This document shows, in pieces, positions 3,856 through 59,572 of a DNA stretch of 64,000 nt (within the stretch, counting starts at the first letter, position 1; each line of letters starts with the position of its first letter). Source of the DNA: Heterodontus francisci (lineage: Eukaryota); the NCBI RefSeq assembly GCF_036365525.1, contig NC_090373.1:119713909-119777908 (forward strand), given 5' to 3'. The notes below the pieces were generated by a model. It was not told the origin of the DNA. It saw only the letters and a program-made list of their open reading frames with translations, and made no database searches. The translations under genes were made by a program, and so were the position numbers.

Positions 3856-4925
3856 CAGCATGGGCAAGGGAAATTCCTGCTGATTACCACCTACCGCTGC
3901 CTCGTCAGCTGAGGAATCAGTACTCCTCCATGTTGAACAGCACTTGGAGGAAGCACTGAGGGTGGCAAGGGTGCAGAATGTACTCTGGGTGGGGGATTTC
4001 AATGTCCATCACCAAGAATGGCTCAAAAGCATCACTACTGACCAAGCTGGCTGAGCCCTAAAGGACAGAGCTGGTAGACTGGGTCTCCAGCAGATGGTGA
4101 GGGAACCAACAAGAGGAAAAAGCATACTTGACCTCATCCTCACCAATCTGCCTGCCGTAGTTGCATCTCTCCATGACAGTATTGATAGGAGTGACCACCG
4201 CACAGACCTTGTGGAGATGATGTCCTGTCTTCACATTGAGAATACCCTCCATCGTGTTGTGTGGCACTACCACCCCGCTAAATGGGGTAGATTTCGAACA
4301 GATCTAGCAATGCCGAACTGGGCATCCATGAGGTGCTGTGGGCCATCATCAGCAGCAGCATAATTGTACTCAATCACAATCTGTAACCTCATGGCCCGGC
4401 ATATCCCCCACTCTATCATTACCATCAAGCCGGGGGATCAACCCTGGTTCAATGAAGAGTGCAGGAAGGCATGCCAGGAGCAGCACCAGGCATACCTCAA
4501 AATGAGGTGTCAACCTGGTGAAGCTACAATCCAGGACTACTTGCATGCCAAACAGCATAAGCAGCATGCGATAGACAGAGCTATGCGATCCCACAACCAA
4601 TGGATCAGATCTAAGCTCTGAAGTCTTGCCACATTCACACAGTGAATGCTGGAGGACAATTAAAAAACAAACTGGAGGAGGTGGCTCCACAAATATCTCC
4701 ATCCTCAATGATGGGCATCCCAGCACATCAGTGCAAAAGATAAGGTTGAAGCATTTGCAACAATTTTCAGCCAGAAGTGTCGAGTGGATTATCCATCTCG
4801 GCTTCATCCTGAAGTTCCCAGCATCACAGATACCAGTCTTCAGCATCACAGTTGCCAGTCTTCAATCAATTCAATTCACTCTGTGCGATATCAAGAAACA
4901 ACTGAAGGCACTGGATACTGCAAAG
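3856..4925 (+). mobile_element. Fragment of the tRNA-headed APE-RT LINE family (APE to pre-RT)
   Basis: Reads WVGDFN, EPTRGKSILDLILTN, SDH, PWFNEEC, LKALDTAK. Colinear with the copies at 33860-37228 and 42689-45862. Confidence 0.9.
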
Positions 4926-5962
4926 GAAAGAAGTTCCAGGATTTTGACCCAGCGACAGTGAGGAAACGGTGATATAGTTCCAAGTCAGGATGGTGTGTGG
5001 CCTGGAGGGGAACTTGCAGGTGGTGGTGTTCCCACGTATCTGCTGCCCTTGTCTTTTTAGGTGGTAGAGGCCGCAGGTTTGGAAGGTGCTGCTTGAGTAG
5101 CCTTGGTGCATTGCTGCAGTGCATCTTATAGATGGTACACACTGCTGCCACAGTGCTTCGGTGGTGGAGGGAGTGAATGTTTGTAGATAGGGTGCCAATC
5201 AAGCGGGCTGCTTTGTCCTGGATGGTGTCGAGCTTCTTGAGTGTTGTTGGAGCTGCACCCATCCAGGCAAGTGGAGAGTATTCCATCACACTCCTGACTT
5301 GTGCCTTGTAGATGGTGGACAGGCTTTGGGGAGTCAGGAGGTGAGTTACTCACCACAGGAATCCTAGCCTTTGGCCTGCTTGTGTAGCCATGGTATTTAA
5401 ATGGCTACTCCAGTTCAGTTTCTGGTCAATGGTAGCCCCTAGGATGTTGATAGTGGGGGATTCAGCAATGGTAATGCCATTGAATGTCAAGGGGAGATGG
5501 TTAAATTCTCTCTTGTTTGAGGTGGTCATTGCCTGGCACTTGTGTGACGCGAATGTTACTTGCTACTTATCAGCCAAAGCCTGGATATTGTCCAGGTCTT
5601 GCTGCATTTCTACACGGTCTGCTTCAGTATCTGAAGAGTTGCGAATGGTGCGGAATATTGTGCAATCATCAGCAAACATCCCCACTTCTGACCTTATGAT
5701 TGAAGGAATGTCATTGATGAAGCAGCTGAAGATGGTTGGGCCCAGGACACTACCCTGAGGAACTCCTGCAGTGATGTCCTGGAGCTCAGATGATTGACCT
5801 CCAACAACCACAACCATCTTCGTTTGGGCTAGGTATGACTCCAACCAGCGGAGGGTTTTCCCCCTGATTCCCATTGACCTCAGTTTTGCTAGGGCTCCTT
5901 GATGCCATACTCGGTCAGATGCTGCCTTGATGTCAAGGGCAGTCACTCTCACCTCACCTCTT
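4926..5962 (-). mobile_element. Fragment of the same LINE family (RT C-terminal half), inverted relative to 3856-4925
   Basis: Reads RVTALDIKAA, QGSVLGPTIFSCFIND, FADD, EYSPLAW; near-identical to 34010-35045. Confidence 0.9.
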
Positions 5963-7321
5963 GTGTGAACCTTGAGGACTGTGAGGCCCTGGAAGGAGAC
6001 AACTCATCGGTGGAGAAGCAGGAGGTAAGAGAGGAGGAGGTGGAGGAGGATAACACTGAACAGAGAGGTGCCCCTGCTGCATGATGAGTTGGCCTCCTCC
6101 TGCCATCCTTTAGGAAGGGGATTTCCCTACTTTCCCTCATGGCCTCCAGCATTAGATCCAGGTCAGCATCGATGAAGCCCCTAGTGCCAGGCCTCCAATT
6201 CCCCTATGACATCTCGCTTCCCTCTGATGCTGTGGAAGGCAGCTCTCTCTCTCTCTTAGATTGAATGGCCTTCTCCTGCTCCTATTTCTTATGTTCTAAG
6301 CAGCCTCAGTGATGACTACAGTAGGAATCTGCATGAACCCCAAACTTGATCTGACCCACTGCCATTTTCAATCCCTCTGGCTCTAAGTGGAAGTCTCCAT
6401 GCCAGTTAAGGACTTACCCATTTGAGAATTGCAATCTGAATCAGTTTCCCACAGGAGGTGGGTTTCTGACCCAAAACCAGACCCGGTTTCTTGTTCCCAC
6501 CTACATAATAAAAATCCAGTCCCTTATCTTTCTTGGCATATTGGCCTCCAGTCCTATGCCAGGTCTTAACTGAGCCGGGAAGTGGAAATTCCTGGTAAAG
6601 AGAATCTCTGTGGAATTTGCCTTGTAAGGAGAAATCTTTAGTTCTGTTGTTTATGTGGCCAACCAGAAAATCTCAAAAACAGCAGGGACCCTGCCTGCAA
6701 TTTTCCAATGCATTCCGGCAGAGTTACGGCAGTGAAAGCCCCAAAGAAATTTGGAGCCATTAAACTCCACAGTTTACCATACTATAAAGAATTTTAAAAT
6801 AAATTAGAACATTTTTCTTTTAATAGAAATAGACAAGTATTTCCAAATTTTAAGATTGGTTTCATATATTTCTCTTTTATGCTTTGCTTTCTTTATTGAC
6901 TTGCTGTTCATCACAGCTACTTTAATGTCTCTGCAAACCCTGCAAACTATAACCCATATTTCCTTATCTCAGCAAATCCTCTTCCAAACTGTTTCTTGGT
7001 TTGTTTGTTATTGCCTGTCAATATATGTCATATGTGCTTCACACAAACCTGCTTTTCTATTCTCCATTGTTCTTACTTTATTTCACCAGGCCAAGCATTC
7101 TCTGCCCCCTAGTGGTTCAAATTTCACATTGGTTAATTGGGTTACCATAGCAGGAATCAGCCTAAAGTATAACATGAGTAATTAAACCAAAGTCTGTAGC
7201 ACAGATTATTCTATGTTAACCCTGTACAAGGTGAGTTTTGTAACCATACTGTGAAACAGGAGATACATGTTTTCGTGTATATACCTTTCCCCTCAATCTG
7301 GCCTGTGTTGTATAATTGATT

Positions 7322-7682
7322 ATTAGATTAGATTAGATTAGAGATACAGCACTGAAACAGGCCCTTCGGCCCACCGAGTCTGTGCCGAACATCAACCACC
7401 CATTTTATACTAATCCTACACTAATCCCATATTCCCAACAAACATCCCCACCTATCCCTATATTTCCCTACCACCTACCTATACTCGTGACAATTTATAA
7501 TGGCCAATTTACCTATCAACCTGCAAGTCTTTTGGCTTGTGGGAGGAAACCGGAGCACCCGGAGAAAACCCACGCAGACACAGGGAGAACTTGCAAACTC
7601 CACACAGGCAGTACCTGGAATCGAACCCGGGTCCCTGGAGCTGTGAGGCTGCGGTGCTAACCACTGCGCCACTGTGCCGCCC
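7322..7682 (-). mobile_element. V-SINE (HE1-like), full length
   Basis: The reverse strand shows A box TGGCGCAGTGG, B box GGTTCGATTCC, V-domain (TGTGTGGAGTTTGC..GGGTGCTCCGGTTTCCTCCCAC), a CR1-like 3' tail and a (CTAAT)n end. Confidence 0.92.
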
Positions 7683-18585: not shown

Positions 18586-18906
18586 TAGAGATACAGTACT
18601 GAAACAGGCCCTTCGGCCCACCGAGTCTGTACCGACCATCAACCACCCATTTATACTAATCCTACATTAATCCCATATTCCCTACCACATTCCCACCTTC
18701 CCTCAATTCTCCTACCACCTACCTACACTAAGGGCAATTTTTACAATGGCCAATTTACCTAACAACTTGCAAGTCTTCGGCTGTGGGAGGAAACTCACGC
18801 AGTCACAGGGAGAACTTGCAAACTCTGCACAGACAGTATACAGAATTGAACCCGGGTCGCTGGAGATGTGAGGCTGCAGTGCTAACCACTGCATCATTGT
18901 GCCGCC
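18586..18906 (-). mobile_element. V-SINE (HE1-like)
   Basis: Homologous to 7322-7682, with a small internal deletion. Confidence 0.88.
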
Positions 18907-19399
18907 TGTTCCACTAAGACGTCACAGTCTGTGACGTTCAGGCAGCTGCCAGGACAAAAGATGGCGCTGCTTAAATAATCACACAAAGGCAACATAACCC
19001 ATGACAGCACACAATGGCTGGAGAAAGCGAGCGGGTGAAGCAAGGAGCGAGCGGCTGGGTGGAGAGCGCGGGGAGGGGGGGTGGGTGGAGAGAGCGGGCG
19101 GCACGGGGTGGGGGGGTGATAGAGAGCGGGCTGGGGGGGAGAGTGTGGGCGGGAGGGGGCGAGGAGGAGAGCGCAGCCGCCACCACCAAGTTCTTTGGCC
19201 GCGCTCTCCCCGCTTCCCCGCATTACGCAATGATGTCATCTGCACATGTGCCAACCAGTCCTGGCAATACAGAATGCTGCGCACGCGCAGAGAGCCAAAG
19301 CCCGTTTGCACATGTGCGCAGCTTGGCGCAGTCTGATGACGTCAGCGGCCGGCTGCATTGTTAAGAATCACTTTGTTCACTCAATGTTCCTCACCAACG

Positions 19400-19626
19400 T
19401 TTAGTTTAGAGATACAGCACTGAAACAGGCCCTTCGGCCCACTGAGTCTGTGCCGACCATCAACCACCCATTTATACTAATCCTACACTAATTCCATATT
19501 CCTACCACATCCCCACCTGTCCCTATATTTTCCCTACCACCTACCTATACTAGGGGCAATTTATAATGGCCAATTAACCTATCAACCAGCAAGTCTTTGA
19601 CATGTGGGAGGAAACCGGAGCACCCA
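19400..19626 (-). mobile_element. V-SINE (HE1-like), 5'-truncated
   Basis: 3' two-thirds of the V-SINE with a (TAAAC)n tail. Confidence 0.85.
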
Positions 19627-20436: not shown

Positions 20437-22761
20437 TGGGGAACGAGCCCGGCCAGGTGGTCGAAGTTTCAGTAGGGGAGCATTTCGGGAGCAGTGACCA
20501 TAATTCCATAAGTTTTAAGGTACTTGTGGATAAGGATAAGAGTAGTCCTCGGGTGAAGGTGCTAAATTGGGGGAAGGCTAATTATAACAATATTAGGCAG
20601 GAACTGAAGAATTTAGATTGGGGGCGGCTGTTTGAGGGTAAATCAACATCTGACATGTGGGAGTCTTTCAAATGTCAGCTGATTAGAATCCAGGACCAGC
20701 ATCTTCCTGTGAGGAAGAAAGACAAGTTTGGCAAGTTTCGGGAAGCTTGGGTAACACAGGATATTGTAAGCCTAGTCAAAAAGAAAAAGGAAGCATTTGT
20801 AAGGGCTGGAAGGCTAGGAACAGACGAAGCACTTGAGGAATATAAAGACAGTAGGAAGGAACTTAAGCAAGGAGTTAGGAGGGCTAAAAGGGGTCATGAA
20901 AAGTCATTGGCAAACAGGATTAAGGAAAATCCCAAGGCTTTTTATACATATATAAAGAGTAAGAGGGTAACTAGGGAAAGGGTTGGCCCACTCAAGGACA
21001 GAGATGGGAATCTATGTGTGGAGCCAGAGGAAATGGGCGAGGTGCTAAATGAGTACTTTGCATCAGTATTCACCAAAGAGAAGGACTTGGTGGATGATGA
21101 GCCTAGGGAAGGGAGTGCAGATAGTCTCAGTCATCTCATTATCAAAAAGGAGGTGTTGGGTGTCTTGCAAAGCATTAAGGTAGATAAGTCCCCAGGGCCT
21201 GATGGGATCTACCCTAGAATACTGAGGGAGGCAAGGGAGGAAATTGCTGGGGCCTTGACAGAAATATTTGCATCCTCATTGGCTACAGGTGAGGTCCCAG
21301 AAGACTGGAGAATAGCCAATGTTGTTCCTTTGTTTAAGAAGGGTGGCAAGGATAATCCAGGAAATTATAGGCCGGTGAGCCTTACATCAGTGGTAGGGAA
21401 ACTATTAGAGAGGATTATTCAGGACAGGATTTACTCCCATTTGGAAACAAAACAAACTTATTAGCGAGAGACAGCATGGTTTTGTGAAGGGGAAGTCGTG
21501 TCTTACTAATTTGATTGAGTTTTTTGAGGAAGTGACGAAGATGATTGATGAAGGAAGGGCAGTGGATGTTATCTATATGGACTTTAGTAAAGCCTTTGAC
21601 AAGGTCCCGCATGGCAGACTGGTACAAAAGGTGAAGTCACACGGGTTCAGAGGTGAGCTGGCAAGATGGATACAGAACTGGCTCAGTCATAGAAGACAGA
21701 GGGTATCAGTGGATGGGTGTTTTTCTGAATGGAGGGATGTGACTAGTGGTGTTCCGCAGGGATCAGTGCTGGGACCTTTGCTCTTTGTAGTATATATAAA
21801 TGATTTGGAGGAAAATGTAGCTGGTCTGATTAGTAAGTTTGCGGACGACACAAAGGTTGGTGGAGTTGCGGATAGTGATGAGGATTGTCAGAGGATACAG
21901 CAGGATATAGATCGGTTGGAGACTTGGGCGGAGAAATGGCAGATGGAGTTTAATCCGGACAAATGTGAGGTAATGCATTTTGGAAGGTCTAAGGCAGGTG
22001 GGAGGTATACAGTAAATGGCAGAACCCTTAGGAGTATTGATAGGCAGAGAGATCTGGGTGTACAGGTCCACAAGTCACTGAAAGTGGCAACGCAGGTGGA
22101 TAAGGTAGTCAAGAAGGCATACGGCATGCTTGCCTTCATCGGTCGGGGCATAGAGTATAAAAATTGGCAAGTCATGTTGCAGCTGTGCAGAACCTTAGTT
22201 AGGCCACACTTAGAATATTGCGTGCAATTCTGGTCGCCACACTACCAGAAGGACGTGGAGGCTTTGGAGAGGGTACAGAGGAGGTTTACCAGGATGTTGC
22301 CTGGTCTGGAGGGCATTAGCTATGAAGAGAGGTTGGAAAAACTCAGATTGTTTTCACTGGAAGGACGGAGGTGGAGGGGTGACATGATAGAGGCTTACAA
22401 AGTCATGAGCGGCTTGGACAGAGTGGATAGTCAGAAGCTTTTTCCCAGGGTGGAAGAGTCAGTTACTAGGGGACATAGGTTTAAGGTGCAAGGGGCAAAG
22501 TTTAGAGGGGATGTGCGAGGCAAGTTTTTTTACACAGAGGGTGGTGAGTGCCTGGAACTTGCTGCCGGGGAGGTGGTGGAAGCAGATACGATAGCGATGT
22601 TTAAGAGACATCTTGACAAATACATGAATAGGAAGGGAATAGAGGGATATGGGCCCCTGAAGTGCAGAAGGTGTTAGTTTAGGTAGACATCAAGATCGGC
22701 GCAGGCTTGGAGGGCCAAATGGCCTGTTCCTGTGCTGTACTGTTCTTTGTTCTTTGTTCTT
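20437..22761 (+). mobile_element. Young 5'-truncated CR1 LINE with nearly intact ORF2
   Basis: ORFs 20436-21464 (342 aa) and 21484-22677 (397 aa) are joined by one frameshift and carry all RT motifs (DFSKAFD, QGSVLGP, FADD). (TTCTTTG)n tail; 5-bp TSD CAGCT (20432-20436, 22762-22766) inside the Harbinger transposase. Confidence 0.95.
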
Positions 22762-33859: not shown

Positions 33860-36800
33860 TTTTTTTTTTTATTCATTCATGGGATGTGAGCGACGCCTGC
33901 CAGGCCAGCATTTATTGCCCATCCCTAATTGCCCTTGAGAAGGTAGTGCTGAGCTGCCTTCTTGAACCGCTGCAGTCCATGTGAGGTAGGTACACCCACA
34001 GTGCTGTTAGGAAGGGAGTTCCAGGATTTTGACCCAGCGACAGCGAAGGAACGGCGATATAGTTCCAAGTCAGGGTGGTGTGTGACTTGGAGGGGAACTT
34101 GCAGGTGGTGGTGTTCCCATGCATTTGCTGCCCTTGTCCTTCTAGTTGGTAGAGGTCACGGGTTTGGAAGGTGCTGTCGAAGGAGCCTTGGTGCATTGCT
34201 GCAGTGCATCTTGTAGATGGTACACGCTGCTGCCACTGTGCGTCGGTGGTGCAGGGAGTGAATGTTTGTAGATGGGATGCCAATCAAGCGGGCTGCTTTG
34301 TCCTGGATGGTGTCGAGCTTCTTGAGTGTTGTTGGAGCTGCACCCATCCAGGAAAGTGGAGAGTATTCCATCACACTCCTGACTTGTGCCTTGTAGATGG
34401 TGGACAGGCTTTGGGAGTCAGGAGGTGAGTTACTCGCCTCAGGATTCCAAGCTTCTGACCTGCTCTTGTAGCCACGGTATTTATATGGCTACTCCAGTTC
34501 AGTTTCTGGTCAATGGAAGCCTCTAAGATGTTGATAGTGGGGGATTCAGCGATGGTAATGCTGTTGAATGTCAAGGGGAGAAGGTTAGATTCTCTCTTCT
34601 TGGAGATGGTCATTGCCTGGCACTTGTCTGGCGCGAATGTTACTTGCCACTTATCAGCCCAAGCCTGGATATTGTCCAGGTCTTGCTGCATTTCTACATG
34701 GACTGCTTCAGTATCTGAGGAGTCACGAATGGTGCTGAACATTGTGCAATCATCAGCGAACATCCCCACTTCTGACCTGATGATTGAAGGAAGGTCATTG
34801 ATGAAGCAGCTGAAGATGGTTGGGCCCAGGACACTACCCTGAGGAACTCCTGCAGTGATGTCCTGGAGCTGAGATGATTGACCTCCAACAACCACAGCCA
34901 TCTTCCTTTGGGCTAGGTATGACTCTAGCCAGCGGAGGGTTTTCCCCCTGATTCCCATTGACCTCAGTTTTGCTAGGGCTCCTTGATGCCATACCCAGTC
35001 AAATGCTGCCTTGATGTCAAGGGCAGTCACTCTCGCCTCACCTCTTGAGTTCAGCTCTTTTTTACATGTTTGAACCAAGGCTGTAATGAGGTCAGGAGCT
35101 GAGTGGCCCTGGCGGAACTCAAACTGAGCGTCACTGAGCAGGTTATTGCAAAGCAAGTGTCGCTTGATGGCACTGTTGATGACACCTTCCATCACTTTAC
35201 TGATGATTGAGAGTAGGCTGATGGGGCAGTAATTGGCCGGGTTGGACTTGTCCTGCTTTTTGTGTACAGGACATACCTGGGCAGTGTTCCACATTGCAGG
35301 GTAGATGCCGGTGTTGTAGCTGTACTGGAAAAGCTTGGATAGGGGCGCGGCAAGTTCTGGAGCACAGGTCTTCAGTACTATTGCCGGAATATTGTCAGGG
35401 CTCATAGCTTTTGCAGTATCCAGTGCCTTCAGTCGTTTCTTGATATCACGTGGAGTGAATCGAATTGGCTGAAGTCTGGCATCTGTGATGCTTGGGACTT
35501 CAGGAGGAGGCCGAGATGGATCATCAACCCGGCACTTCTGGCTGAAGGTTGTTGCAAATGCTTCAGCCTTATCTTTCGCACTGATGTGCTGGGCTCCCCC
35601 ATCATTGAGGATGGGGATATTTGTGGAGCCACCTCCTCCAGTTAGTTGCTAGCTCTGCTGGACAGATGCTGCCAGATCTGCTGAGTGGTTCCAGCATTTC
35701 TTGTTTTTATTTCAGATTTCCAGCATCTGCAGTATTTTGCTTTTATCCTCCAGTTAGTTGTTTAATTGTCCACCACCATTCACGGCTGGATTTGGTAGGA
35801 CTGCAGAGCTTAGATCTGATCCGTTGGTTATGGGATCGCTTAGCTCTGTCTATCGTATGCTGCTTATGCAGTTTGGCATGCAGATAGTCCTCGGTTGTAG
35901 CTTCACCAGGTTGACACCTCATTTTGAGGTATGCCTGATGCTGCTCCTGGCATGCCCTCCTGCACTCTTCATTGAACCAGGGTTGGTCTCCTGGCTTGAT
36001 GGTAATGTTAGAGTGGGGGATATGCCGGGCCATGAGGTTACAGATTGTGGTTGAGAACAATTCTGCTGCTGCTGATGGCCCACATTGCCTCATGGATGTC
36101 CAGTTTTGCATTGCTAGATCTGTTCGAAATCTATCCCATTTAGTACGGTGATAGTGTCACACAACATGACGGACAGTATCCTCAATGTGAAGGCAGCACT
36201 CCGTCTCCACAAGGACTGTGCGGTGGTCACTCCTACCAATACTGTCATGGACAGAAGCATGTGCGTCAGGCAGATTGGTGAGGACGAGGTCAAGTATGTT
36301 TTTCCCTCGTGTTGGTTCCCCCACCACCTGCCGCAGACCCAGTCTAGCAGCTATGTCCTTTAGGACTTGGCCAGCTCGGTCAGTAGTGGTGCTACCGAGC
36401 CACTCTTGGTGATGGACATTGAAGTCTCCCACCCAGAGTACATTTTGTGCCCTTGCCACCCTCAGTGCTTCCTCCAAGTGGTGTTCAACATGGTGGAGTA
36501 CTGAGTCATCAGCTGAGGGAGGGCGGTAGGTGGTAATCAGTAGGAGGTTACTTGCCCATGTTTGCCCTGATGCCATGAGACTTCATGGGGTCCGGAGTTG
36601 ATGTTGAGGACTCCTAGGGCAACTCCCTATTGTATACCACTGTCCCGCCACCTCTGGTGGGTCTGTCCTGCCGGTGGGATAGGACATACCCGGGGATGGT
36701 GATGGCAGTGTCTGGGACATTGTCTGTAAGGTATGATTCCGTGAGTATGACTGTCAGGCTGTTGCTTGACTAGTCTGTGGGACAGCTCTCCCAACTTTGG

Positions 36801-37228
36801 CACGAGCCTCCAGATGTTAGTAAGGAGGACTTTGCAGGGTCGACAGGGCTGGGTTTGCCGTTGTCGTTTCCAGTGTCTAGGTCGATGCCGGGCGGTTCAT
36901 CCGGTTTCATTCCTTTTTATTGACTTCGTCGCGATTAGGTACAACTGAGTGGCTTGCTAGGCCATTTCAGAGGGCATGTAAGAGTTAACCACGTTGCTGT
37001 GGGTCTGGAGTCACATGTAGGCCAGACCAGGTAAGGACAGCAGATTTCCTTCCCTAAAGGACATTAGTGAACCAGATGAGTTTTTACAACAATTGACAAT
37101 GGTTTCATGGCCATCATTAGACTAGCTTTTTAATTCCAGATTTATTAATTAAATTCAAATTCCACCTTCTACTGTGGTGGGATTCGAACCCATGTCCCCA
37201 GAGAGACACCCTGGGTCTCTGGGTTACT
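33860..37228 (-). mobile_element. tRNA-headed single-ORF APE-RT non-LTR retrotransposon, copy 1 (lacks ~30 nt of the 5' end)
   Basis: B box GGTTCGAATCCC at 37179-37190, then a SINE-like core. APE starts at ~36836 (KVLLTNIW..ILTESYL..RGGGTVVY). RT ORF 34371-35405 is followed by a WNSLP C-terminus, short 3' UTR and poly(A). Confidence 0.92.
35649..35745 (+). mobile_element. 97-bp Penelope pLTR 3' fragment inserted in the LINE
   Basis: 15-bp TSD TCCTCCAGTTAGTTG (35634-35648, 35746-35760); the sequence matches 47905-47983. Confidence 0.88.
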
Positions 37229-40302: not shown

Positions 40303-41525
40303 AAACAAAATACTGTGGATGCTGGAAATCTGAAATAAAAACAGAAACTGCCAGAAATACTGAACAAGTCAGGCAGCATCTAAAGAGAGGAAACTGAGCT
40401 AACGTTTCAGGTCTGTGACCTTTCATCAGAACTGGGAAAAGTTAGAAATGTAATAGGTATTAAGCAGGTGAAAGGGGGAGGGTGGAGAGAGATTAAATGA
40501 CAAAAGAGTTCATGGTACTAAGCCAAAGGGAGTGGTAATGAGACATGTAAAGAATCAGAAAATGTCTCTGGATGAGGTGTGAATGGCAGGATAATGAATA
40601 GCTGCCATCTGAAGGCAATGAAAAGGGAAAAGAAACGAGAGAAAGAAAAGCAAACCAACAAAGAAAAAGGAAATAAAATAGGAGCAGAGGTTATGATGTA
40701 AAATTGAACTCTGTTGATTCCAGAAGGCTAAGAAGTGCCCAATAGGAAGATAAGGTGCTGTTCCTCAAGCTTGTATTGAACTTGGTTGGAACACTGCAGG
40801 AGGCCGAGGACAAAAAGGTCAGAGTGGGAGCAAAGTGCAGAATTAAAATGACAGGCAATTGGAAGGTCTGGATTATGCTTGCGGACTGAATGGAGGTGTT
40901 CCGCAAAGTGGTCATCAAGTCTATATTTGGTCTCACAATGTAGAGGAGACCATATCATAAGCAGGAAATACAGTATATTAAATTGAAAGAAGCACAAGTA
41001 AATCACTGTTACACCTGGAAGGAGTGTTTGGAGCCTTGGACAGTGAAAAGGGAGGAGGTAAGAAGGAAAGGTGTTGCATCTTCTGCGCTTGCATGGAAAG
41101 GTGCCGTAGGCAGAGAAGAAGGTTTTCGGGGTGATTGAGAAATGGCCCAGGGTGTCGTGGAGGGAATGGTCTCTTCAGAATTCTGAAAGGAGAGAGGAAG
41201 AGAAGATGTGTTTGGTGGTGGCATCATGCTGGAGGTGGTGAAAATGGCGAGGATGATCAGTTGAATACCGAGGCTGGTGAGTGGAAGCTGCAGACAAGGA
41301 GATCTTTATCGTGGTTCCAAGAAGGTGGGGAAGGAGAGAGAGCATAAGTGCGTAAAATGGAATGGACTCCGTAAACCATAGTGTGAGGGGTGTCAGCCTC
41401 AGCTGAGGAAAAGGGAAGACATATTGGAAGCTCTAGTATGGAAGGTTACATCATCAGAACAGATGTGACAAAGGCGGAGAAATTGCGAGAATGGAATTAA
41501 TGTCCTGACAGGAAGCAGTTTGTGA
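40303..41525 (-). mobile_element. Penelope-like element fragment (RT thumb, GIY-YIG, pLTR)
   Basis: The reverse strand reads IPFSQFLRLCHICSD and NLIYCISC..LYIVETKYRLDDHFAEH..PIACHFN. The pLTR carries a hammerhead motif. Confidence 0.85.
40397..40433 (-). ncRNA. Minimal type I hammerhead ribozyme motif (PLE pLTR)
   Basis: AGTT-CTGATGA-A-AGGTC-ACA-GACCT-GAAA-CGTT-AGCT. Confidence 0.75.
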
Positions 41526-42688: not shown

Positions 42689-45600
42689 TTTTTTTTATTC
42701 AATCATGGGATGTGGGCGTCACTAGTTAGGCCAGCATTTATTGCCCATCCCTAATTGCCCTTGAGAAGGTGGTGGTGAGCTGCCATCCTGAACCGCTGGA
42801 GTCCATATAGGGTAGGTTCACCAACAGTGCTGTTCAGGAGGGAGTTCTAGGATTTTGACCCAGCGACAGTGAAGGAGCGGCGATATAGTTCCAAGTCAGG
42901 ATGGTGTGTGGCTTAGAGGGGAACTTGCTGGTGGTGGTGTTCCCAAGCATCAGCTGCCCTTGTCCTTCTAGGTGGTAGCGGTCGTGGGTTTGGAAGGTGC
43001 TGTCTCAGGAGCCTTGGTGTGTTTCTCCAGTGCATCTTGAAGATGGTACACACTGCTGCCACTGTGTATCGCTAGTGGAGGAAGTGAATGTTGTGGATGG
43101 GGTGCCAATCAAGCGAGCTGCTTTGTCCTGGATGGTGTTGAGCTTCTTGAGTGTTGTTGGAGCTGTAACCATCCAGGCAACTGGAGAATATTCCACCATA
43201 CTCCTGACTTGCACCTTGTAGATGGTGGACAGGCTTTGGGGAGTCAGGACGTGAGTTACTTGCTGCAGGATTCCTAGCCTCTGGCCTGCTCTTGTACTCA
43301 TTATTTATATGGCTACTCCAGTTCAGTTTCAGGTCAATGATAACCCTCCAGGATGTTGATAGCGTGGGATTCAGGGATTGCAATGCCACTGAATGTCAAG
43401 GGGAGATGGTTAGATTCTCTCTTGTTGGAGATGGCCATTGCCTGGCACTTGTGTGGCGCGAATGTTACTTGCTACTTATCAGCCCAAGCCTAGCTATTGT
43501 CCAGGTCTTGCTGCATTTCTACACGGACTGCTTCAGTATCTGAGAAATTGCGAATGGTGCTGAATATTGTGCAATCATCAGTGAACATCCCCACTTCTGA
43601 CGTTATGATTGAAGGAAGGTCATTGATGAAGCAGCTGAAGATGGTTGGACTTAGGATACTACCCTGAGGATCTCCTGCAGTGATGTCCTGGAGCTGAGAC
43701 GATTGACCTCCAACAACCACAACCACCTTCCTTTGCGTTAGGTACGATTCCAACCAGCGGAGAGTTTTCCCCTTGATTCCCATTGACTCCAGCTTTGCTA
43801 GGGCACCTTGATGTCATACACGATCAAATGCAGCATTGATGTCAAGGGCAGTCACTCTCACCTCACCTCTTGAGTTCAGCTCTTTTGTCCATGTTTGAAC
43901 TAAGGCTGTAATGAGGTCAGGAGCTGAGTGGCCTTGGCAGAACCCAAACTGAGCATCACTGAGCTAAACAAGTGCCGCATGACAGCACTGTTGACGACAC
44001 CTTCCATTACTTTACTTTGATTGAGAGTAGACTGAAGGGGCGGTATTTGGCTAGGTTGGACTTGTATACAAAAAGCAGGACATACCTGAGCAATTTTCCA
44101 CATTGCTGGGTAGATGCCAATGTTGTAGCTGTACTGGAACAGCTTGGCTAGGTGCACAGCAAGTTCTGGAGCACAGAACTATTGCCGGAATGTTGTCAGG
44201 GCCCATAGCCTTTGCAGTATCCAGTGCCTTCAGTCGTTGCTTGATATCACGTGGAGTGAATTGAATTGGCTGAAGACTGGCATCTGTGATGCTAAGGACT
44301 TCAGGAGGAGACCGAGGTGGATCATCCGCTCGGCACTTCTGGCTGACGATTATTGCAAATGCTTCAGCCTTGTCTTTTGCACTGATGTGCTGGGCTCCCC
44401 CATTATTGAGGATGGGAATATTTGTGAAGCCACCTTCTCCAGTTAGTTGTTTAATTGTCCACCCTCATTCATGACTGAGTGTGGCAGGACTGCAGAGCTT
44501 AGGTCTGATCTGTTGGTTATGGGATTGCTTAGCTCTGTCTATCGCATGCTGCTTATGCTGTTTGGCACGCAAGTAGTCCTCGGTTGTAGCTTCACCAGAA
44601 TGACACCTGATTTTGAGGTATGCCTGGTGCTGCTCCTGGAATGCCCTTCTGTACTCTTCATTGAACCAGAGTTGGTCCCCCAGCTTGATGGTAATGGTAG
44701 AGTGGGGGATATGCCGGGTCATGAGGTTACAGATTGTGGTTGAGTACAATTCTGCTGTTGCTGATGGCCCACAGCGCCTCATGGGTGCCCAGTTTTGCAT
44801 TGCTTGATCTGTTCAAAATCTATTCCATTTAGTACGGTGGTGGTGTCAAACAACACGATGGAGGGTATCCTCAATGTGAAGATGGGACTTTGTTTCCACA
44901 AGGACTGTGAAGTGGTCACTCCTACCAATATTGTCATGGACAGATGCATCTGTGGCAGGCAGATTGGTGACAACGAGGTGAAGTATATTTTTCTCTCTTG
45001 TTGGTTCCCTCACCACCTGCCGCAGACCCAGTCTAGCAGCTATGTCCTTTAGGACTTGGCCAGCTCGGTCAGTAGTGGTGCTACCAAGTCACTCGGTGAT
45101 GGACGTGGATGTCTACCACCCAGAGTACATTCTGTACCCTTGCCACCCTCAGTGCTTCCTCCAAGTGCTGTTCCCCATGGAGTACTGATTCATCAGCTGA
45201 GGCGGGGGCAGTAGGTGGTAATCAGCAGGAGGTTTCCTTGCCCATGTTTGACCTGATGCCATGAGACGTCATGAGGTCTGGAGCCGATGTTGAGGACTCC
45301 CAGGGCAACTATCTCCCAACCACTGTGCCACCACCTCAGCAAGGTCTTTCCTGCCGGTGGGACAGGACATACCTGAGGATGCTGATGGTGGTGTCTGGGA
45401 CATTGTAAGATATGATTCGGTGAGTATGACTGTGTCAGGCTGTTGCTTAACTAGTCTGTGGCACAAGCCACCAGATGTTGGTAAGGAGGACTTTGCAGAG
45501 TCGACAGGGCTGTGTTTGCTGTCGTAATTTCCGGTGCCTAGGTCAATGCCAGGTGGTCCATCTGGTTCAATTCCTTATTGACTTTGTAGCGGTTAGATAC

Positions 45601-45862
45601 AACTGAGTGGCTTGCTCGGCCATTTCAGAGAGCATTAAGAGTCAACCACATTGCTGTGCGTCTGGTGTCACATGTAGGCCAGACCAGATAAGGACAGCAG
45701 ATTCCTTCCCTCGACAATGGCCTTCATTCGACTAGCTTCTAATTCCAGATTTATTAATTTAATTCAAATTCTATCTTCTATTTTGGGATGCGAACCCATG
45801 ACCCCAGAGCAATACTCTGGGTTTCTGGGTTACTAGTCCAGTGACAATACCACTACGCCACC
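42689..45862 (-). mobile_element. tRNA-headed single-ORF APE-RT non-LTR retrotransposon, copy 2 (full length), nested in the Penelope element
   Basis: A box TGGCGTAGTGG (45850-45860), B box GGTTCGCATCCC (45785-45796), core, degenerate APE-RT and poly(A). Host PLE sequence stops at 42688 and resumes at ~45861. Confidence 0.92.
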
Positions 45863-48631: not shown

Positions 48632-48959
48632 GTAAGTCATATGGAAAATAAGCTTATTTTCAAGGAAACAAAATCTTTGGCTTACCAAATAGAATATATA
48701 TTATTTTCATACTTTTTAAAGAACCAGTAAATGAGCATTTATTATTTTCCCTGTAACACTGCCACAGTGTCCCCGTTAGCAGGCTGAATGCATATTTCTG
48801 ACCACAGCATTTTCTGAAACTGATTCACCCTAAATTTGAAAACAAATTGTCTTAAAGTTACCTAGACAATTTGCTCACCCTACTTGCCAACCATTAAAAA
48901 TCCTACTAAAAGAGGCTGGTGGAGTTGATGAGTATACAAGGCTAATAGAAGTGATGGCA

Positions 48960-50500
48960 ACAAATGACTGAAGGCATTGGATATAGCAAAGATTATGGGC
49001 CCGGACAACATTCCAGCTATAGTATTCTGTGCTCCAGAACTAGCTGATACTCTAGCCGAGCTGTTCTGGAACAGCTACGACACTGGTATCTACCAGACAA
49101 TGTGGAAAATTGCCCAGGTATGTCCTATCTATAAAAACAGGACAAATCCAATTTGGCCAATTACCGCCCCATCCGTCTACTCTTGATCATCAGCAAAGTG
49201 ATGGAAGGTGTCATTGACGGTGCTATCAAGTGGAATTTATTCAGCAATAACCTGCCCCACCAATGCTCAGTTTGGGTTCCAGAAGGGCCACTCGGTTTCA
49301 GACCTCATTACAGTCATGTCCAAACATGGGCAAAAGAGCTGAATTCAACAGGTGAGAGTGACTACCCTTAATATCAAGATAGTATTTGATCAAGTCAGCA
49401 TCTAGAAGCCCTAGCAAAATTGAAGTCAATGGGAATCGGGGGAAAACTTTCCACTGGTTAGAGCCATACTTAGCACAAAGGATGATGATTGTGGTTGTTG
49501 TCTTAGCCCCAGGACATTGCTGCAAGAGTTCCTCAGGGTAGTCTCCTAGGCCCAACCATCTTCAGTTGCTTCATCAATGACCTTCCCTCCATCATTAGGT
49601 CAGAAGAGGGGATGTTCACTAATGATTGCAGTGCTCAGTACCATTCACAATTCCTGTGATACTGAAGCAGTCCATGGCCTTCTACAGCAAGACCTGGACA
49701 ACATTCAGGCTTGGCCTGATAAGTGGCAAGTGAGATTCATGCCATACCAGTGCCATGCAATGACCATCTTCAACAAGAGAGAATCTGACCACCTTCCCTT
49801 GACATTCAGTGGCATTGCCAAATGCCCTATCATCAACATCCTAGGGGTTACCATTGACCAGAAACTTAACTGGACCAGACATATAAATACTGTGGCTACG
49901 AAAGAAAGTCAGAGGCTGAGAATTCTGTGGCGAGTAACTCACCACCTGACTCCCCAAAGCCTATCCGCTATCTACAAAGCACAAGTTACGAATGTGATGG
50001 AACACTCTCCACTTGCCTGGATGAGTACAGCTCCCAACAACTCAAGAAGCTCAACAACATCCAGGACAAAGCAGTCCACTTGATTGCCACGCCATCCACC
50101 ACTTTAAACATTCACCCACTCCACCACCAGCGCACCATAGCTGCAGTGTGTACCGTGTACAAAATGTACTGCCACAACTCATCAAGGTTGTTTTGATAGC
50201 ACTTCCCAAACCCATGACCTCTACCACCTAGAAGGACAAGGACAGCAGGTGCGTGGAAACACCACCACCTCCAAGTCCCCCTTAAGTCACACGCCATTCA
50301 ACTTGGAAATATATCACAATTCCCTCATCGTTGCTGCATCAAACTCCTAGAACTCCCTACTTAACAGCACTGTAGAAGTACCTTCACCATACAGACTGCA
50401 GTGGTTCAAGCAGGTGGCTCACCACGATCTTCTCAAGGGCAACAAGGAATGTTCAATTAATGCTGCCCTTGTCAGCAATGTCCACTTGAACGAATAACTA
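48960..50500 (+). mobile_element. Older, 5'-truncated copy of the tRNA-headed LINE family (RT to 3' end)
   Basis: Reads GPDNIPA, NYRPI, QQDLDNIQAW, IDQKLNW, and ends with the family 3' motif CTTCTCAAGGGCAA. Confidence 0.85.
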
Positions 50501-54990: not shown

Positions 54991-55085
54991 CATTTCTGTT
55001 TATTCTTCTTCTGCTGTTCAAGACAAATCAACTCCAAAACTAAAGAAAGATGTCTGTTGAGACCAAATATTTATTTTGCAACTTT

Positions 55086-55415
55086 TAGCACCGCAGCCTC
55101 ACAGCTCCAGCGACCCGGGTTCAATTCTGGGTACTGCCTGTGTGGAGTTTGCAAGTTCTCCCTGTGTCTGTGTGGGTTTCCTCCGGGTGCTCCGGTTTCC
55201 TCCCACATGCCAAAGACTTGCAGGTTGATAGGTTAATTGGCCATTATAAATTGCCCCTAGTATAGGTAGGAGGGAGGGAAATATAGGGACAGGTGGGGAT
55301 GTGGTAGGGACATGGGATTAGTGTAGGATTAGTATAAATGGGTGGTTGATGGTCGGCACAGACTCGGTGGGCTGAAGGACCTGTTTCAGTGCTGTATCTC
55401 TAAACTAAACTAAAC
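55086..55415 (+). mobile_element. V-SINE (HE1-like)
   Basis: B box GGTTCAATTC, V-domain and (TAAAC)n tail. Confidence 0.9.
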
Positions 55416-56132: not shown

Positions 56133-56484
56133 ATGATAATCCATGACAAAAACGGAAGTAGAGAGCGAATTTTGGAAGCAGTTCATTGAAATACTTCAGA
56201 CTTTCCAATTGTTCAGTGGATAACCGCTGACAGAATATGTGCGAGAAATAACTGTGGAAGGGGTGACACATATTGTGCAGCAGTATTGATATCTGATAAT
56301 AATAAGCAACCTATTTTAGTACTAGCGGCAGCCTAAAGGATCGATAGGCAAATAAACGCGGAGAGGGAGTAATAAGAGCGAGAGAACATTGAGCACTATG
56401 AGGTCAGAGAAGTGGATAGATACGGTCCAGTCGTGAAAAGGTTGACAGATTCATTGTTTTCAGAGGGGAAATGAGGTTGTGAAG

Positions 56485-57406
56485 ATGGGTGATTGGAATT
56501 TGCTAGGAAGCATTTTGGAAGAGGTGCACGTTCACTCAACCATCATGGGGAAGATCTGGTTGACAATCCTGTTCATTTTCAGGATGTTGGTTCTTGGGGT
56601 GGCTGCTGAAGATGTTTGGGATGATGAACAAGTTGAATTCATCTGCAACACAGAGCAACCAGGCTGCAGGAACGTTTGCTACGATAAGGCTTTCCCCATT
56701 TCTCTCATAAGGTACTGGGTCCTACAAATTATTTTCGTCTCTTCGCCGTCCTTGGTTTACATGGGTCACGCACTCTATCGGCTAAGAGCACTCGAGAAAG
56801 AAAGGCAGCGGAAGAAAGTCCACCTCCGAACCGAACTGGAAGACATTGAGCCGGCGATGGAGGAGCACAAAAGGTTGGAAAAAGAACTGAGAAAGTTGGA
56901 AGAGCAGCGCAAGGTAAATAAGGCACCTCTCCGGGGTTCACTGTTACGCACTTACGTCCTCCAGATACTGACCAGATTAGTGATGGAAATTGGTTTCATG
57001 GTGGGTCAATATCTCCTGTACGGATTTCGACTTGATCCTCTCTACAAGTGCCTACGATCACCCTGCCCCAATACTGTGGATTGTTTCGTTTCCAGGCCCA
57101 CAGAAAAGACTATTTTCATCGTCTTCATGCTCAGCATAGCTGCTTTCTCCTTGTTTTTGAATATACTTGAAATCATTCACTTAGGAATCAGAAAAATCAA
57201 ACAGGGACTTTACCAGGAGTCAGAGCTGAGCATCTACAAATCGAAGAAGAGCTCAGTTGTGCAGCAAGTTTGCATTATGACCAACTCCTCACCTCACAAA
57301 CTTGTCCCTATGGCGCTTCGTAGTTATAAGCTTTTACCAGAACAGCAGGGATATCCAGGAAACCTTCCTATCTTGCTGACTTCGACGACGCTTAGCATGA
57401 TTAAAG
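56485..57406 (+). CDS. GJA10: Gap junction alpha-10 (Cx57/Cx62-type connexin), coding exon 1: N-terminus, four TM helices, proximal tail
   Basis: [15 protein letters not shown]; extracellular loops [12 protein letters not shown] and [20 protein letters not shown]; GJA9/10-type [17 protein letters not shown] tttcAG acceptor at 56462-56463 precedes the ATG; AAG/GTGAGG donor (phase 1). Confidence 0.93.
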
Positions 57407-57421
57407 GTGAGGCCTGTATTA

Positions 57422-57773
57422 TTTAGTTTAGTTTTAGTTTAGTTTAGAGATCCAGCACTGAAACAGGCCCTTCGGCCCACCGAGTCTGTGCCGACCATCA
57501 ACCACCCATTTATACTAATCCTACACTAATCCCATATTCCTACCACATCCCCACCTGTCCCTATATATTTCCCTACCAACTACCTACAGTAGGGGCAATT
57601 TATAATGGCCAATTAACCTGTCAACCTGCAAGTCTTTGGCATGTGGGAGGAAACCGGAGCACCCGGAGGAAACCCACGCAGACACAGGGAGAACTTGCAA
57701 ACTCCGCACAGGCAGTACCCAGAATCGAACCCGGGTCCCTGGAGCTGTGAGGCTGCGGTGCTAACCACTGCCC
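57422..57773 (-). mobile_element. V-SINE (HE1-like) in the connexin intron
   Basis: Near-identical to the other V-SINE copies; (TAAAC)n tail at the left end. Confidence 0.92.
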
Positions 57774-59572
57774 CATAGAACATAGAAACACCGATTTATT
57801 TTTGTTTCTGCTGCATGAGATATGAAGATCTAAAGAATGTCTTTACACATTAATATTATAATATCAGATATTTGGTTTGAGTCTCCACATCATTCAACTG
57901 GTGAAGCAGTAACCTTTAAACAAATTGTGTAGATTTTTATCACACCTTTTTAGATTTAACATATTTTAAACACTTGTTTTAAAAATGTCTGTAATCATTA
58001 ATGCTTAAATTTTGTTTTGTGCTGATTTAATTGATCTCAGCCAGGACAGTAGTAGACATAATTAGCCTCAGCATCCATAGATTAGAGGAGTGTTGTCCAA
58101 TAGAAATCACTGACAAGTCACAAGCATAGGCTACACTGTTTAGCTACATGCACTCGGTTTAGTAGAAAACATATTACACACAATACAGGCAACTGTACTA
58201 CCTGTGTACATTTACTTAGCAAACATAGAACAACATTCAGTGCAAAACTTTCCAATCTTTCTCTTTCACCATAGCTACATATTCAGGCATGAATTGATCA
58301 GACAATTATGCCTATTACTCATGTTTTATTTACTAATGAAATTGCAATTCACCGCATCTGGATTCCTAATTCACCACATGTGGTTAGTAGCTAATGTATT
58401 GGACAAAACTAGGTTGGAGAATGGAAAGTTGATTATTATACGGAGACTCCTGCTAATAGTGCACATGTTTGGATGTTGATTGCGGTCAGGTCTCACCATA
58501 TTTGAGTAGCCCACTTACATTCATGGATTAAGCTTGCACATGAAGAGTGTCCATCCAGCAAGGAGTCTGCACTTTCAGGAGAGGAAGAGGGAGGTGTGAA
58601 AATTAGCAGAAAACAATGATGGAATGGAAAAAAACAGAGTATGGGGATGCTGTTAACAAGTACTGTACTTACACTGCATACAGCGGTGAGCAAATTTTAG
58701 TGTCAACATATTATGATTTCTTTTTTTAGCAATGCTAGATGCAAAGTGTGAAAATATTCATTCTTGAAATCCTAATAAAGATCATATCTTAATATGCATT
58801 ATAAAAACAGACATTTTTTTTGTTTCCTAATACAATCATTTATTTTTCAAGATGAACTCCAGCTTAATAGAATATCTACTTCCGTAACAGTTTTCCAATC
58901 ACGTGATGAACCAACTTCATTTATTGATCTTCTCTTACTGAAATTGCATTGTAACCACATGATACAGCATTTCAGAACAAATTATAAACTAAAAGAAATG
59001 TATTCAAAAATGAATGGAAAAAGGATGACAATATAAAAACAAGTCTAAACTTATATATTGTGCATGTGGAAATCATAACAAGCATGGAAAGTTGCCTTGT
59101 TACATTGGAGCCTGGACTGACTTAAGCCATTTAAATAAAGCAGCAAATTCAACCTATTTGCTTGATAAATCATCAAATGAACGGTTGATTCGAATTAACC
59201 CACTTCAAATTAAGAGGAGTACACATTATAGCAAAAAAAAAAGATTGAGGTCTTGTCATCTCTATACTTACAACCATCAATCTTTTCAGTATTAACAGCA
59301 TCAAATAAAATTGGATTGATCTGTTTATTAGCAGCATCAGTACTTTTGCCTACAGGTTTGCATGAACTTTGACCAAATATATTGTGACAGTTAAACAGAT
59401 CAACTAGCATGTAAGCATTATAGAGTCATTACATTGCTTCGTGCCATTATAGAATTCCTGTCTAATGAACAGGTACATATTAAATAGAGAATATGTTTAA
59501 TCCATTGCATGCAAGTAAATACATTTAACTGAACTCAGATGAATGCCTAACGTCTTCATTTATGAATTTAAG

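Follow-up and report, generated by a model that had tools for sequence, protein, structure and literature searches.

A decayed LINE and its relatives in the window

The window, i.e., the whole stretch of 64,000 nucleotides analysed here (Heterodontus francisci, NCBI RefSeq assembly GCF_036365525.1, contig NC_090373.1, positions 119,713,909 to 119,777,908 of the forward strand), contains a decayed LINE on the minus strand, hereafter copy 1, and three further copies of the same family. Their parts are given below in window positions; negative numbers such as -80 are counted from the start of the endonuclease.

33860..37228, minus strand: copy 1, decayed
37180..37228, minus strand: remnant of the tRNA-like head of copy 1, B box at 37190-37180
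36943..37179, minus strand: SINE-shared body of copy 1, whose end is the SINE body-tail junction
36957..36977, minus strand: mini upstream frame of copy 1, in-frame ATG at 36977, ATG at 36965, TAG at 36959
36911..36941, minus strand: A-rich spacer of variable sequence in copy 1, separating the SINE-shared body from the out-of-frame ATG
36908..36910, minus strand: ATG at -80 of copy 1, out of frame (+1) relative to the endonuclease
33925..36830, minus strand: APE-RT coding region of copy 1, endonuclease start at 36830, stop at 33927-33925, Pfam Exo_endo_phos_2 and RVT_1
35649..35748, no strand assigned: 100-nt secondary insertion of another repeat in copy 1, with a 14-15 nt duplication, missing from sister copies
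35329..35332, minus strand: sole T4 of copy 1, a private G>T
33860..33924, minus strand: 3' UTR of copy 1, shared with the SINE tail, with ATGA repeats and A-tail
42690..45860, minus strand: copy 2, older, A box at 45860-45850, altered B box at 45796-45786, endonuclease start at 45491
3859..5966, no strand assigned: copy 3, 5'-truncated and partly inverted
48951..50469, plus strand: copy 4, the oldest, 5'-truncated, about 79% identical to copy 1

The unit is otherwise about 3.3 kb long; copy 1 lacks its first 36 or so nucleotides, A box included, while copy 2 retains the A box, and the coding region of copy 1 is interrupted by stops and frameshifts. The repeat inserted at 35649-35748 has relatives at 40303, 42238, 47903 and 52868 of the window, and a piece of it lies within one of the SINE loci (L281). 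The inversion of copy 3, near 4924, resembles those of twin-primed insertions. Elsewhere, a frame of 326 amino acids on the plus strand (56446-57426) matches Pfam Connexin and is probably an exon of a host gap-junction gene. A different, young tRNA-headed SINE family occupies 7309-7681, 18586-18906, 19399-19625, 55085-55414 and 57415-57775, and ARAGORN reports a tRNA-like sequence within it at 7606-7678.

An elasmobranch Zenon with one long frame

A genome search with the head and endonuclease as query gave 40 scored matches among 9,429 candidates. The 39 non-self matches are 93-95% identical over 729 nt and, as they were chosen for having the head, are uninformative on the share of copies that carry it. 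A family consensus of commonest letters was built from 23 of these 39 copies over 3,289 columns, the other 16 (truncated, interrupted or rearranged) being dropped. The resulting LINE unit measures 3.28 kb, ends in a poly-A tail and has no ORF1, its endonuclease starting 433 nt from the family 5' end. Read by commonest codons, it yields a single uninterrupted APE-RT frame of 975 codons followed by a 54-nt 3' UTR; the preliminary description had put the ORF at about 930 codons, which agrees with 933 codons counted from the first endonuclease residue, the figure of 975 being counted from the upstream stop. Pfam recognizes endonuclease and reverse transcriptase domains in an arrangement, one APE-RT frame, that is that of Zenon (CR1 group), and the PF09004 profile found no match in the family or in the controls.

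None of 17 full-length copies has kept this frame intact, the longest open stretch reaching 570 codons. The tree of the copies is close to a star, and at non-CpG sites the young ones have diverged from their nodes by about 2.4% and the old ones by 4-12%. Comparing the young with the old group, we counted 29 synonymous to 38 non-synonymous non-CpG changes (40 to 51 for the oldest group), as against 695 to 1,647 among private changes, a contrast with P values of 0.02 and, for the oldest group, 0.005, in which majority calls for the old group are subject to noise. The frame is thus under purifying selection that is real but modest, with a ratio of about 0.55.

The sequence of this family has already been published, as elasmobranch Zenon of the CR1 group, in PMC13343379. 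A 15-nt motif of the body matches the CarCar, ScyCan and SquAca Zenon rows of that supplement, and by eye the first 400 nt are nearly identical to Zenon-1 of CarCar, RhiTyp, ScyCan, SquAca and HypSab. The available portions of that paper describe Zenon as lacking ORF1, having a poly-A tail and being known in elasmobranchs, coelacanth and hagfish; its elasmobranch Zenon-1 consensuses are 3.24-3.31 kb long, without ORF1 and A-tailed, and the present family is the same in these respects. The words "tRNA" and "polymerase" each occur zero times in its main text, and neither the Pol III head, the T-run deficit nor the missing start codon is mentioned in the portions at hand. This is a known family whose anatomy is apparently undescribed.

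A Pol III-type head shared with an abundant SINE

An identical 10-nt leader stands directly upstream of the A box in 29 of the 39 copies, with a B box downstream, both boxes being read against the general A/B box consensus. The 5' end of the family is sharp: full-length copies start 10-11 nt upstream of the A box, and beyond position -11 relative to that box sequences are unrelated. The same head and body open the published Zenon-1 of four sharks and one ray, and within the same scope (the first 400 nt of each consensus in PMC13343379) the head is absent from the hagfish and coelacanth rows. Six spellings of the B box matched only elasmobranch Zenon rows over the first 400 nt of each row of that supplement. 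Rfam gave no match to the head at the gathering score, its best hit, in a sister copy, being a T-arm-like hairpin of the head below that score; ARAGORN reported no tRNA in any of 44 metagenome loci, a weak test because the program also missed the head in the window. Target-site duplications were recognized in two of the 39 copies, a number too small for a test of whether a cap had left an additional G.

The head is not private to the LINE. An exact pattern spanning the body-tail junction occurs 7,520 times in the genome and its reversed control not once; of 20 junction loci, 19 align with the head or body of the LINE at 67-94% identity, and the same joint is present in contigs of other runs. 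There is hence an abundant SINE built of the LINE's own head, body and tail, and the body it shares with the LINE is putatively Deu-like. Like a tRNA-derived SINE, the LINE carries A and B boxes at its 5' end; unlike such a SINE, it is neither short nor non-coding (3.28 kb, with a selected frame). The SINE fits SacSINE1 as described in the available parts of PMC5499810 and of the tables of PMC3747384. Since the SINE is common to chimaera and coelacanth and the headed LINE is found only in elasmobranchs, the head was more likely captured by the LINE from an older SINE than given to the SINE. As a separate observation, T4 or longer runs lie within 24 nt of the tail start in 13 of 86 3' ends of the family and the SINE, often just before the A-run, and could stem from quasi-palindrome repair or be a built-in terminator after AATAAA.

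Such a layout raises the question of whether the element is a LINE at all, or a long, non-autonomous SINE with a dead LINE frame for cargo, mobilized by a different LINE. The lack of an intact frame among the 17 full-length copies would fit, as would the published tables of PMC13343379, which in the portion available list almost no intact frames for these families, and another tail donor, L2-2_CM, has been proposed for the chimaera SINE in the accessible text of PMC5499810. A dead cargo is nevertheless hard to reconcile with commonest codons that spell an uninterrupted 975-codon frame with an excess of synonymous change, or with the persistence of one layout in sharks and a ray (as far as the published heads extend), and we regard this explanation as very improbable.

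Depletion of T-runs and terminator motifs

The preliminary description had proposed that the sense strand of the family is almost devoid of T4, the vertebrate Pol III terminator, and on this ground that its whole frame is selected for read-through by Pol III. Its counts for the window hold. Copy 1 has a single T4 on its sense strand (35329-35332), where 96% of young copies have G; copy 2 has two runs of T4 or longer (44815-44818 and 44070-44074). All three are damage that followed insertion; by comparison with sister copies, those of copy 2 arose, respectively, through decay of a CpG and through micro-inversion of a run of A. The CR1 at 20437-22761, reported to have about nine, has nine. The rarity of TTT is likewise borne out, with 10 runs of T3 or longer in copy 1 vs 22.7 in base shuffles, the T4 count of this copy taken alone being marginal (1 vs 4.6 expected, P 0.054). 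Across 75 copies there are 41 T4 runs at 32 positions; as they are scattered and the commonest, seen seven times, is a CpG decay, they are best read as changes that arose after insertion.

Over the 3,289 columns of the family consensus we found 0 T4 and 8 T3, where base shuffles give 4.5 and 21.9 (P 0.009 and 0.0002; all P values here are nominal, several statistics having been tried on T-runs). Within the frame, synonymous shuffling leaves the T3 deficit in place (4 vs 12.8, with 0 of 5,000 shuffles as low), and the T4 count becomes unremarkable: 0 vs 2.1 (P 0.08), 0 vs 1.0 when CpG and TpA context are also fixed (P 0.33), and P 0.07-0.09 under borrowed codon usage. The absence of T4 alone is therefore weak evidence, being within codon-null expectation (P 0.07-0.33), and the claim that T-runs fall below base and codon expectation stands for T3 and for the wider set of terminator motifs but not for T4 by itself.

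The detail of the deficit is more telling. All four TTT of the frame are Phe codons, and across codon borders there are none vs 6.9 expected (P 0.0005) under a null that preserves amino acids, codon usage and CpG/TpA context. At third positions the ratio of T to C is 6:51 when T follows, compared with 55:129 when A follows and 50:116 when C follows; TTA is used for none of 92 Leu codons; Phe makes up 1.8% of residues vs a median of 4.3% in 120 homologues, four of which are as low; and TTT is the most depleted of the 64 trinucleotides. According to the available part of PMC3141230, the motifs T3VT2, T2VT3, T3VT, TVT3 and T2VT2 likewise terminate human Pol III, and isolated T3 or T2GT2 hardly do. 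Counted by this definition, the 975-codon frame has one terminator motif vs 6.5 and 4.5 expected (P 0.0035 and 0.026), and this one site is a T2GT2, nearly inactive in the experiments reported there; the same motifs built on A, C and G number 30, 35 and 21. The whole consensus has no T4, no T3VT2 or T2VT3, and three weak sites in 3,289 columns. Tests on windows with four T of five, on TTVTT and on TT were each non-significant alone (P 0.055-0.73). The head of the young subfamily contains motifs of the TVT3 and T3VT types as well as a pair of T3 runs near each other, which could cause partial termination. Avoidance of self-insertion as the cause of T-poverty was rejected by reasoning, for A-runs should then vanish too, yet 12 A4 remain.

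Nothing comparable is seen in CR1, Tx1-like and L2 elements of the genome. The CR1 has 36 T3 and 9 T4 in 734 codons and 18 terminator motifs (P 0.04 and 0.22); two frames with T at 0.21, assigned to a Tx1-like clade by motif and length, have 39 T3 and 13 T4 in 1,235 codons and 26 and 5 in 1,118; an L2 has 19 and 7 in 1,307 columns; and none of these is under its null for T3 or T4. The closest control is an RTE with T at 0.187, which has 9 T3 and 1 T4 in 2,002 columns and lies at expectation. Compared directly with it, Zenon is significantly lower in a single respect, T3 inside the frame (P 0.024; whole alignments, P 0.15 and 0.08). Equal depletion, which would have spoken against selection for read-through, was thus not seen in CR1, Tx1-like and L2 elements; the RTE is T-poor in absolute terms, though at expectation. 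Among 80 metagenome relatives, the 48 with frames of 550 codons or more have 7-49 T4 each, most of them being richer in T, and four reach P 0.05 for T3 and two for T4. Two side observations may be added: many Tx1-like copies have identical open frames of 1,252 amino acids on several contigs (genome G000), which suggests a currently active family, and an RTE fragment recurs over and over, always at the same score, on a single contig (C40 of the same genome), which suggests a large segmental array.

These controls bear on a second explanation, by which the functional RNA is made by Pol II, with the head as promoter or by read-through, and T-poverty reflects low U together with avoidance of tracts of pyrimidines or of U-rich signals for 3' processing. 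The few T-runs of the RTE are in keeping with it and so are the insignificance of T4 against codon nulls and the two AATAAA of the 3' UTR; the LINEs tested so far use Pol II, as far as the available part of PMC1874656 goes, and a cap would ease translation. However, CR1, Tx1-like and L2 elements of the same genome retain their T-runs, the deficit remains with codon usage fixed, the 5' end falls sharply just before an intact A box, both boxes being kept in the published heads of five other species, and a capped RNA would still meet the upstream AUGs of the leader, about nine in number. We therefore consider transcription of the functional RNA by Pol II unlikely. As to selection for read-through by Pol III, the T3 and motif deficit and the type-2 Pol III head lend the proposal partial support and the T4 argument is insufficient on its own; the evidence from sequence is good but indirect.

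No in-frame AUG that reaches the endonuclease

The preliminary description had also noted no in-frame ATG just upstream of the endonuclease, and there is indeed no usable one: the ATGs at -147 and -135 are cut off by an in-frame TAG at -129. Of 66 copies examined, 44 were scored, and in 37 of these the frame ends at this TAG. Farther on, the first in-frame Met is codon 285, beyond the endonuclease, while in 9 of 11 full-length relatives (one motif match being doubtful) a Met precedes the endonuclease. As no in-frame AUG reaches the endonuclease, non-canonical initiation is implied, and a non-standard start would be required whichever polymerase makes the RNA.

Which route it would take can be narrowed to some extent. 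All five published shark and ray heads, within the portion of PMC13343379 at hand, have the out-of-frame ATG at -80 downstream of the A-rich spacer; this spacer is 31 nt long in the present family and, judged by eye, in three of these species, and 27 and 30 nt long in whale shark and dogfish. The distance from TAG -129 to the endonuclease preserves the frame in 42 of the 44 copies and, again by eye, in three of the five published heads. Readthrough of this TAG is disfavoured as a start route, because the spacers of 27 and 30 nt in whale shark and dogfish do not keep the frame. GAG replaces it in 4 of 44 copies without linked variants, on which account it is read as a recurrent transversion rather than as the mark of a coding subfamily. 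In the leaders of independent copies (loci L031-L069) a T>G change recurs, turning CTA into CGA (also TAG into TCG), possibly a mutational hot spot of this genome. Two first-position changes that preserve Arg, seen by eye in the available published heads, favour the idea that the basic stretch before the endonuclease may be read in the endonuclease frame. A search for a stable fold in the leaders of five copies found none (z -1.8 to +0.7).

It could be argued that the two tasks are divided, Pol III making the RNA that is copied and the protein being made from capped RNAs of the family, whether transcribed by Pol II or by read-through from the host. Such a division would explain the head and the T-run deficit without uncapped translation, and would sit well with the lack of both an in-frame AUG and a leader structure and with the modest selection on the frame. 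Yet an open 975-codon frame under purifying selection implies that the coding RNA favours its own copying, and the missing AUG is equally a problem for a capped RNA, so that we judge this division of labour distinctly unlikely.

A proposed life cycle

The reading to which we incline with moderate confidence is that of an autonomous Zenon LINE that would be transcribed end to end by Pol III and translated from that same RNA by a non-standard start. Transcription by Pol III is indicated by three features together: an intact type-2 promoter at a sharply defined 5' end, the retention of this promoter in sharks and rays, and a deficit that follows the terminator rules of Pol III. TFIIIC would bind the A and B boxes of the head, and Pol III would read the 3.3 kb and stop at the first T-run of the flank, as for SINEs. 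The RNA would be uncapped, with ribosomes presumably entering internally at or just past the A-rich spacer. Initiation would most probably take place at a non-AUG codon that is in frame with the endonuclease, or at the conserved AUG at -80 followed by a change of frame. The protein would then copy its own RNA from the A-tail and may move the SINE in trans. Contigs of four runs, which we guess to be RNA, cover all 30 bins of the element and are uninformative on strand, start and polymerase.

Precedents exist for parts of this scheme. R2 is a LINE whose RNA comes from a polymerase other than Pol II and is translated without a cap or a conserved AUG; it is co-transcribed by Pol I, released by a ribozyme and has no promoter of its own, and differs thereby from headed Zenon. 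Ingi elements with tRNA- or 5S-derived 5' ends are said to appear in Repbase reports and would be a precedent. The other comparisons rest on the accessible parts of the papers cited. The Deu-SINEs SacSINE1 and LmeSINE1 (PMC5499810, PMC4824008) also have a tRNA head with A and B boxes, a conserved body and a LINE-type tail, but they are short and non-coding and their partner is described as sharing the tail only, whereas the partner in this genome is a coding LINE that has head and body in common with the SINE as well as the tail. Lepidopteran Zenon and Persaeus, a derivative of it that arose by deletion (PMC6740152), likewise pair a single-ORF Zenon with a short element that has the same two ends; unlike the shark SINE partner, Persaeus is without tRNA, 5S or 7SL homology and without a Pol III promoter. 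In the bipartite RTE/Vingi derivatives, with Ingi-3_AC (PMC5786205), 5' parts have likewise been exchanged between LINEs and SINEs, but the tRNA head is joined to non-coding, deleted LINEs, unlike the coding Zenon. A coding LINE with a Pol III head is not described in the available portions of PMC5786205, PMC4824008, PMC7245038, PMC4494074, PMC11481361, PMC10498592 and PMC1874656, and we found no description of an autonomous LINE transcribed by Pol III in the literature searched, subscription journals and Repbase Reports lying outside its scope.

In its full form, the chances of which we put at about even, the proposal is that of a natural 3.3-kb coding Pol III transcript, an autonomous "coding SINE" that would have been kept since the split of sharks and rays, with codons and amino acids shaped against terminators, uncapped translation without an in-frame AUG and a Deu-type body possibly serving ribosome entry. 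In the available texts the vertebrate Pol III transcriptome is held to consist universally of short non-coding RNA (PMC10498592) and SINEs to be unable to encode protein (PMC5786205); a LINE with a SINE promoter would, if real, break both rules. It would also be a natural system in which to study translation without a cap and elongation by Pol III over long distances, and would allow a direct test of the role of the conserved Deu-type body, a question raised in PMC5786205 and PMC5499810. For the shark Deu-type SINE, Zenon becomes a named partner that shares both of its ends.
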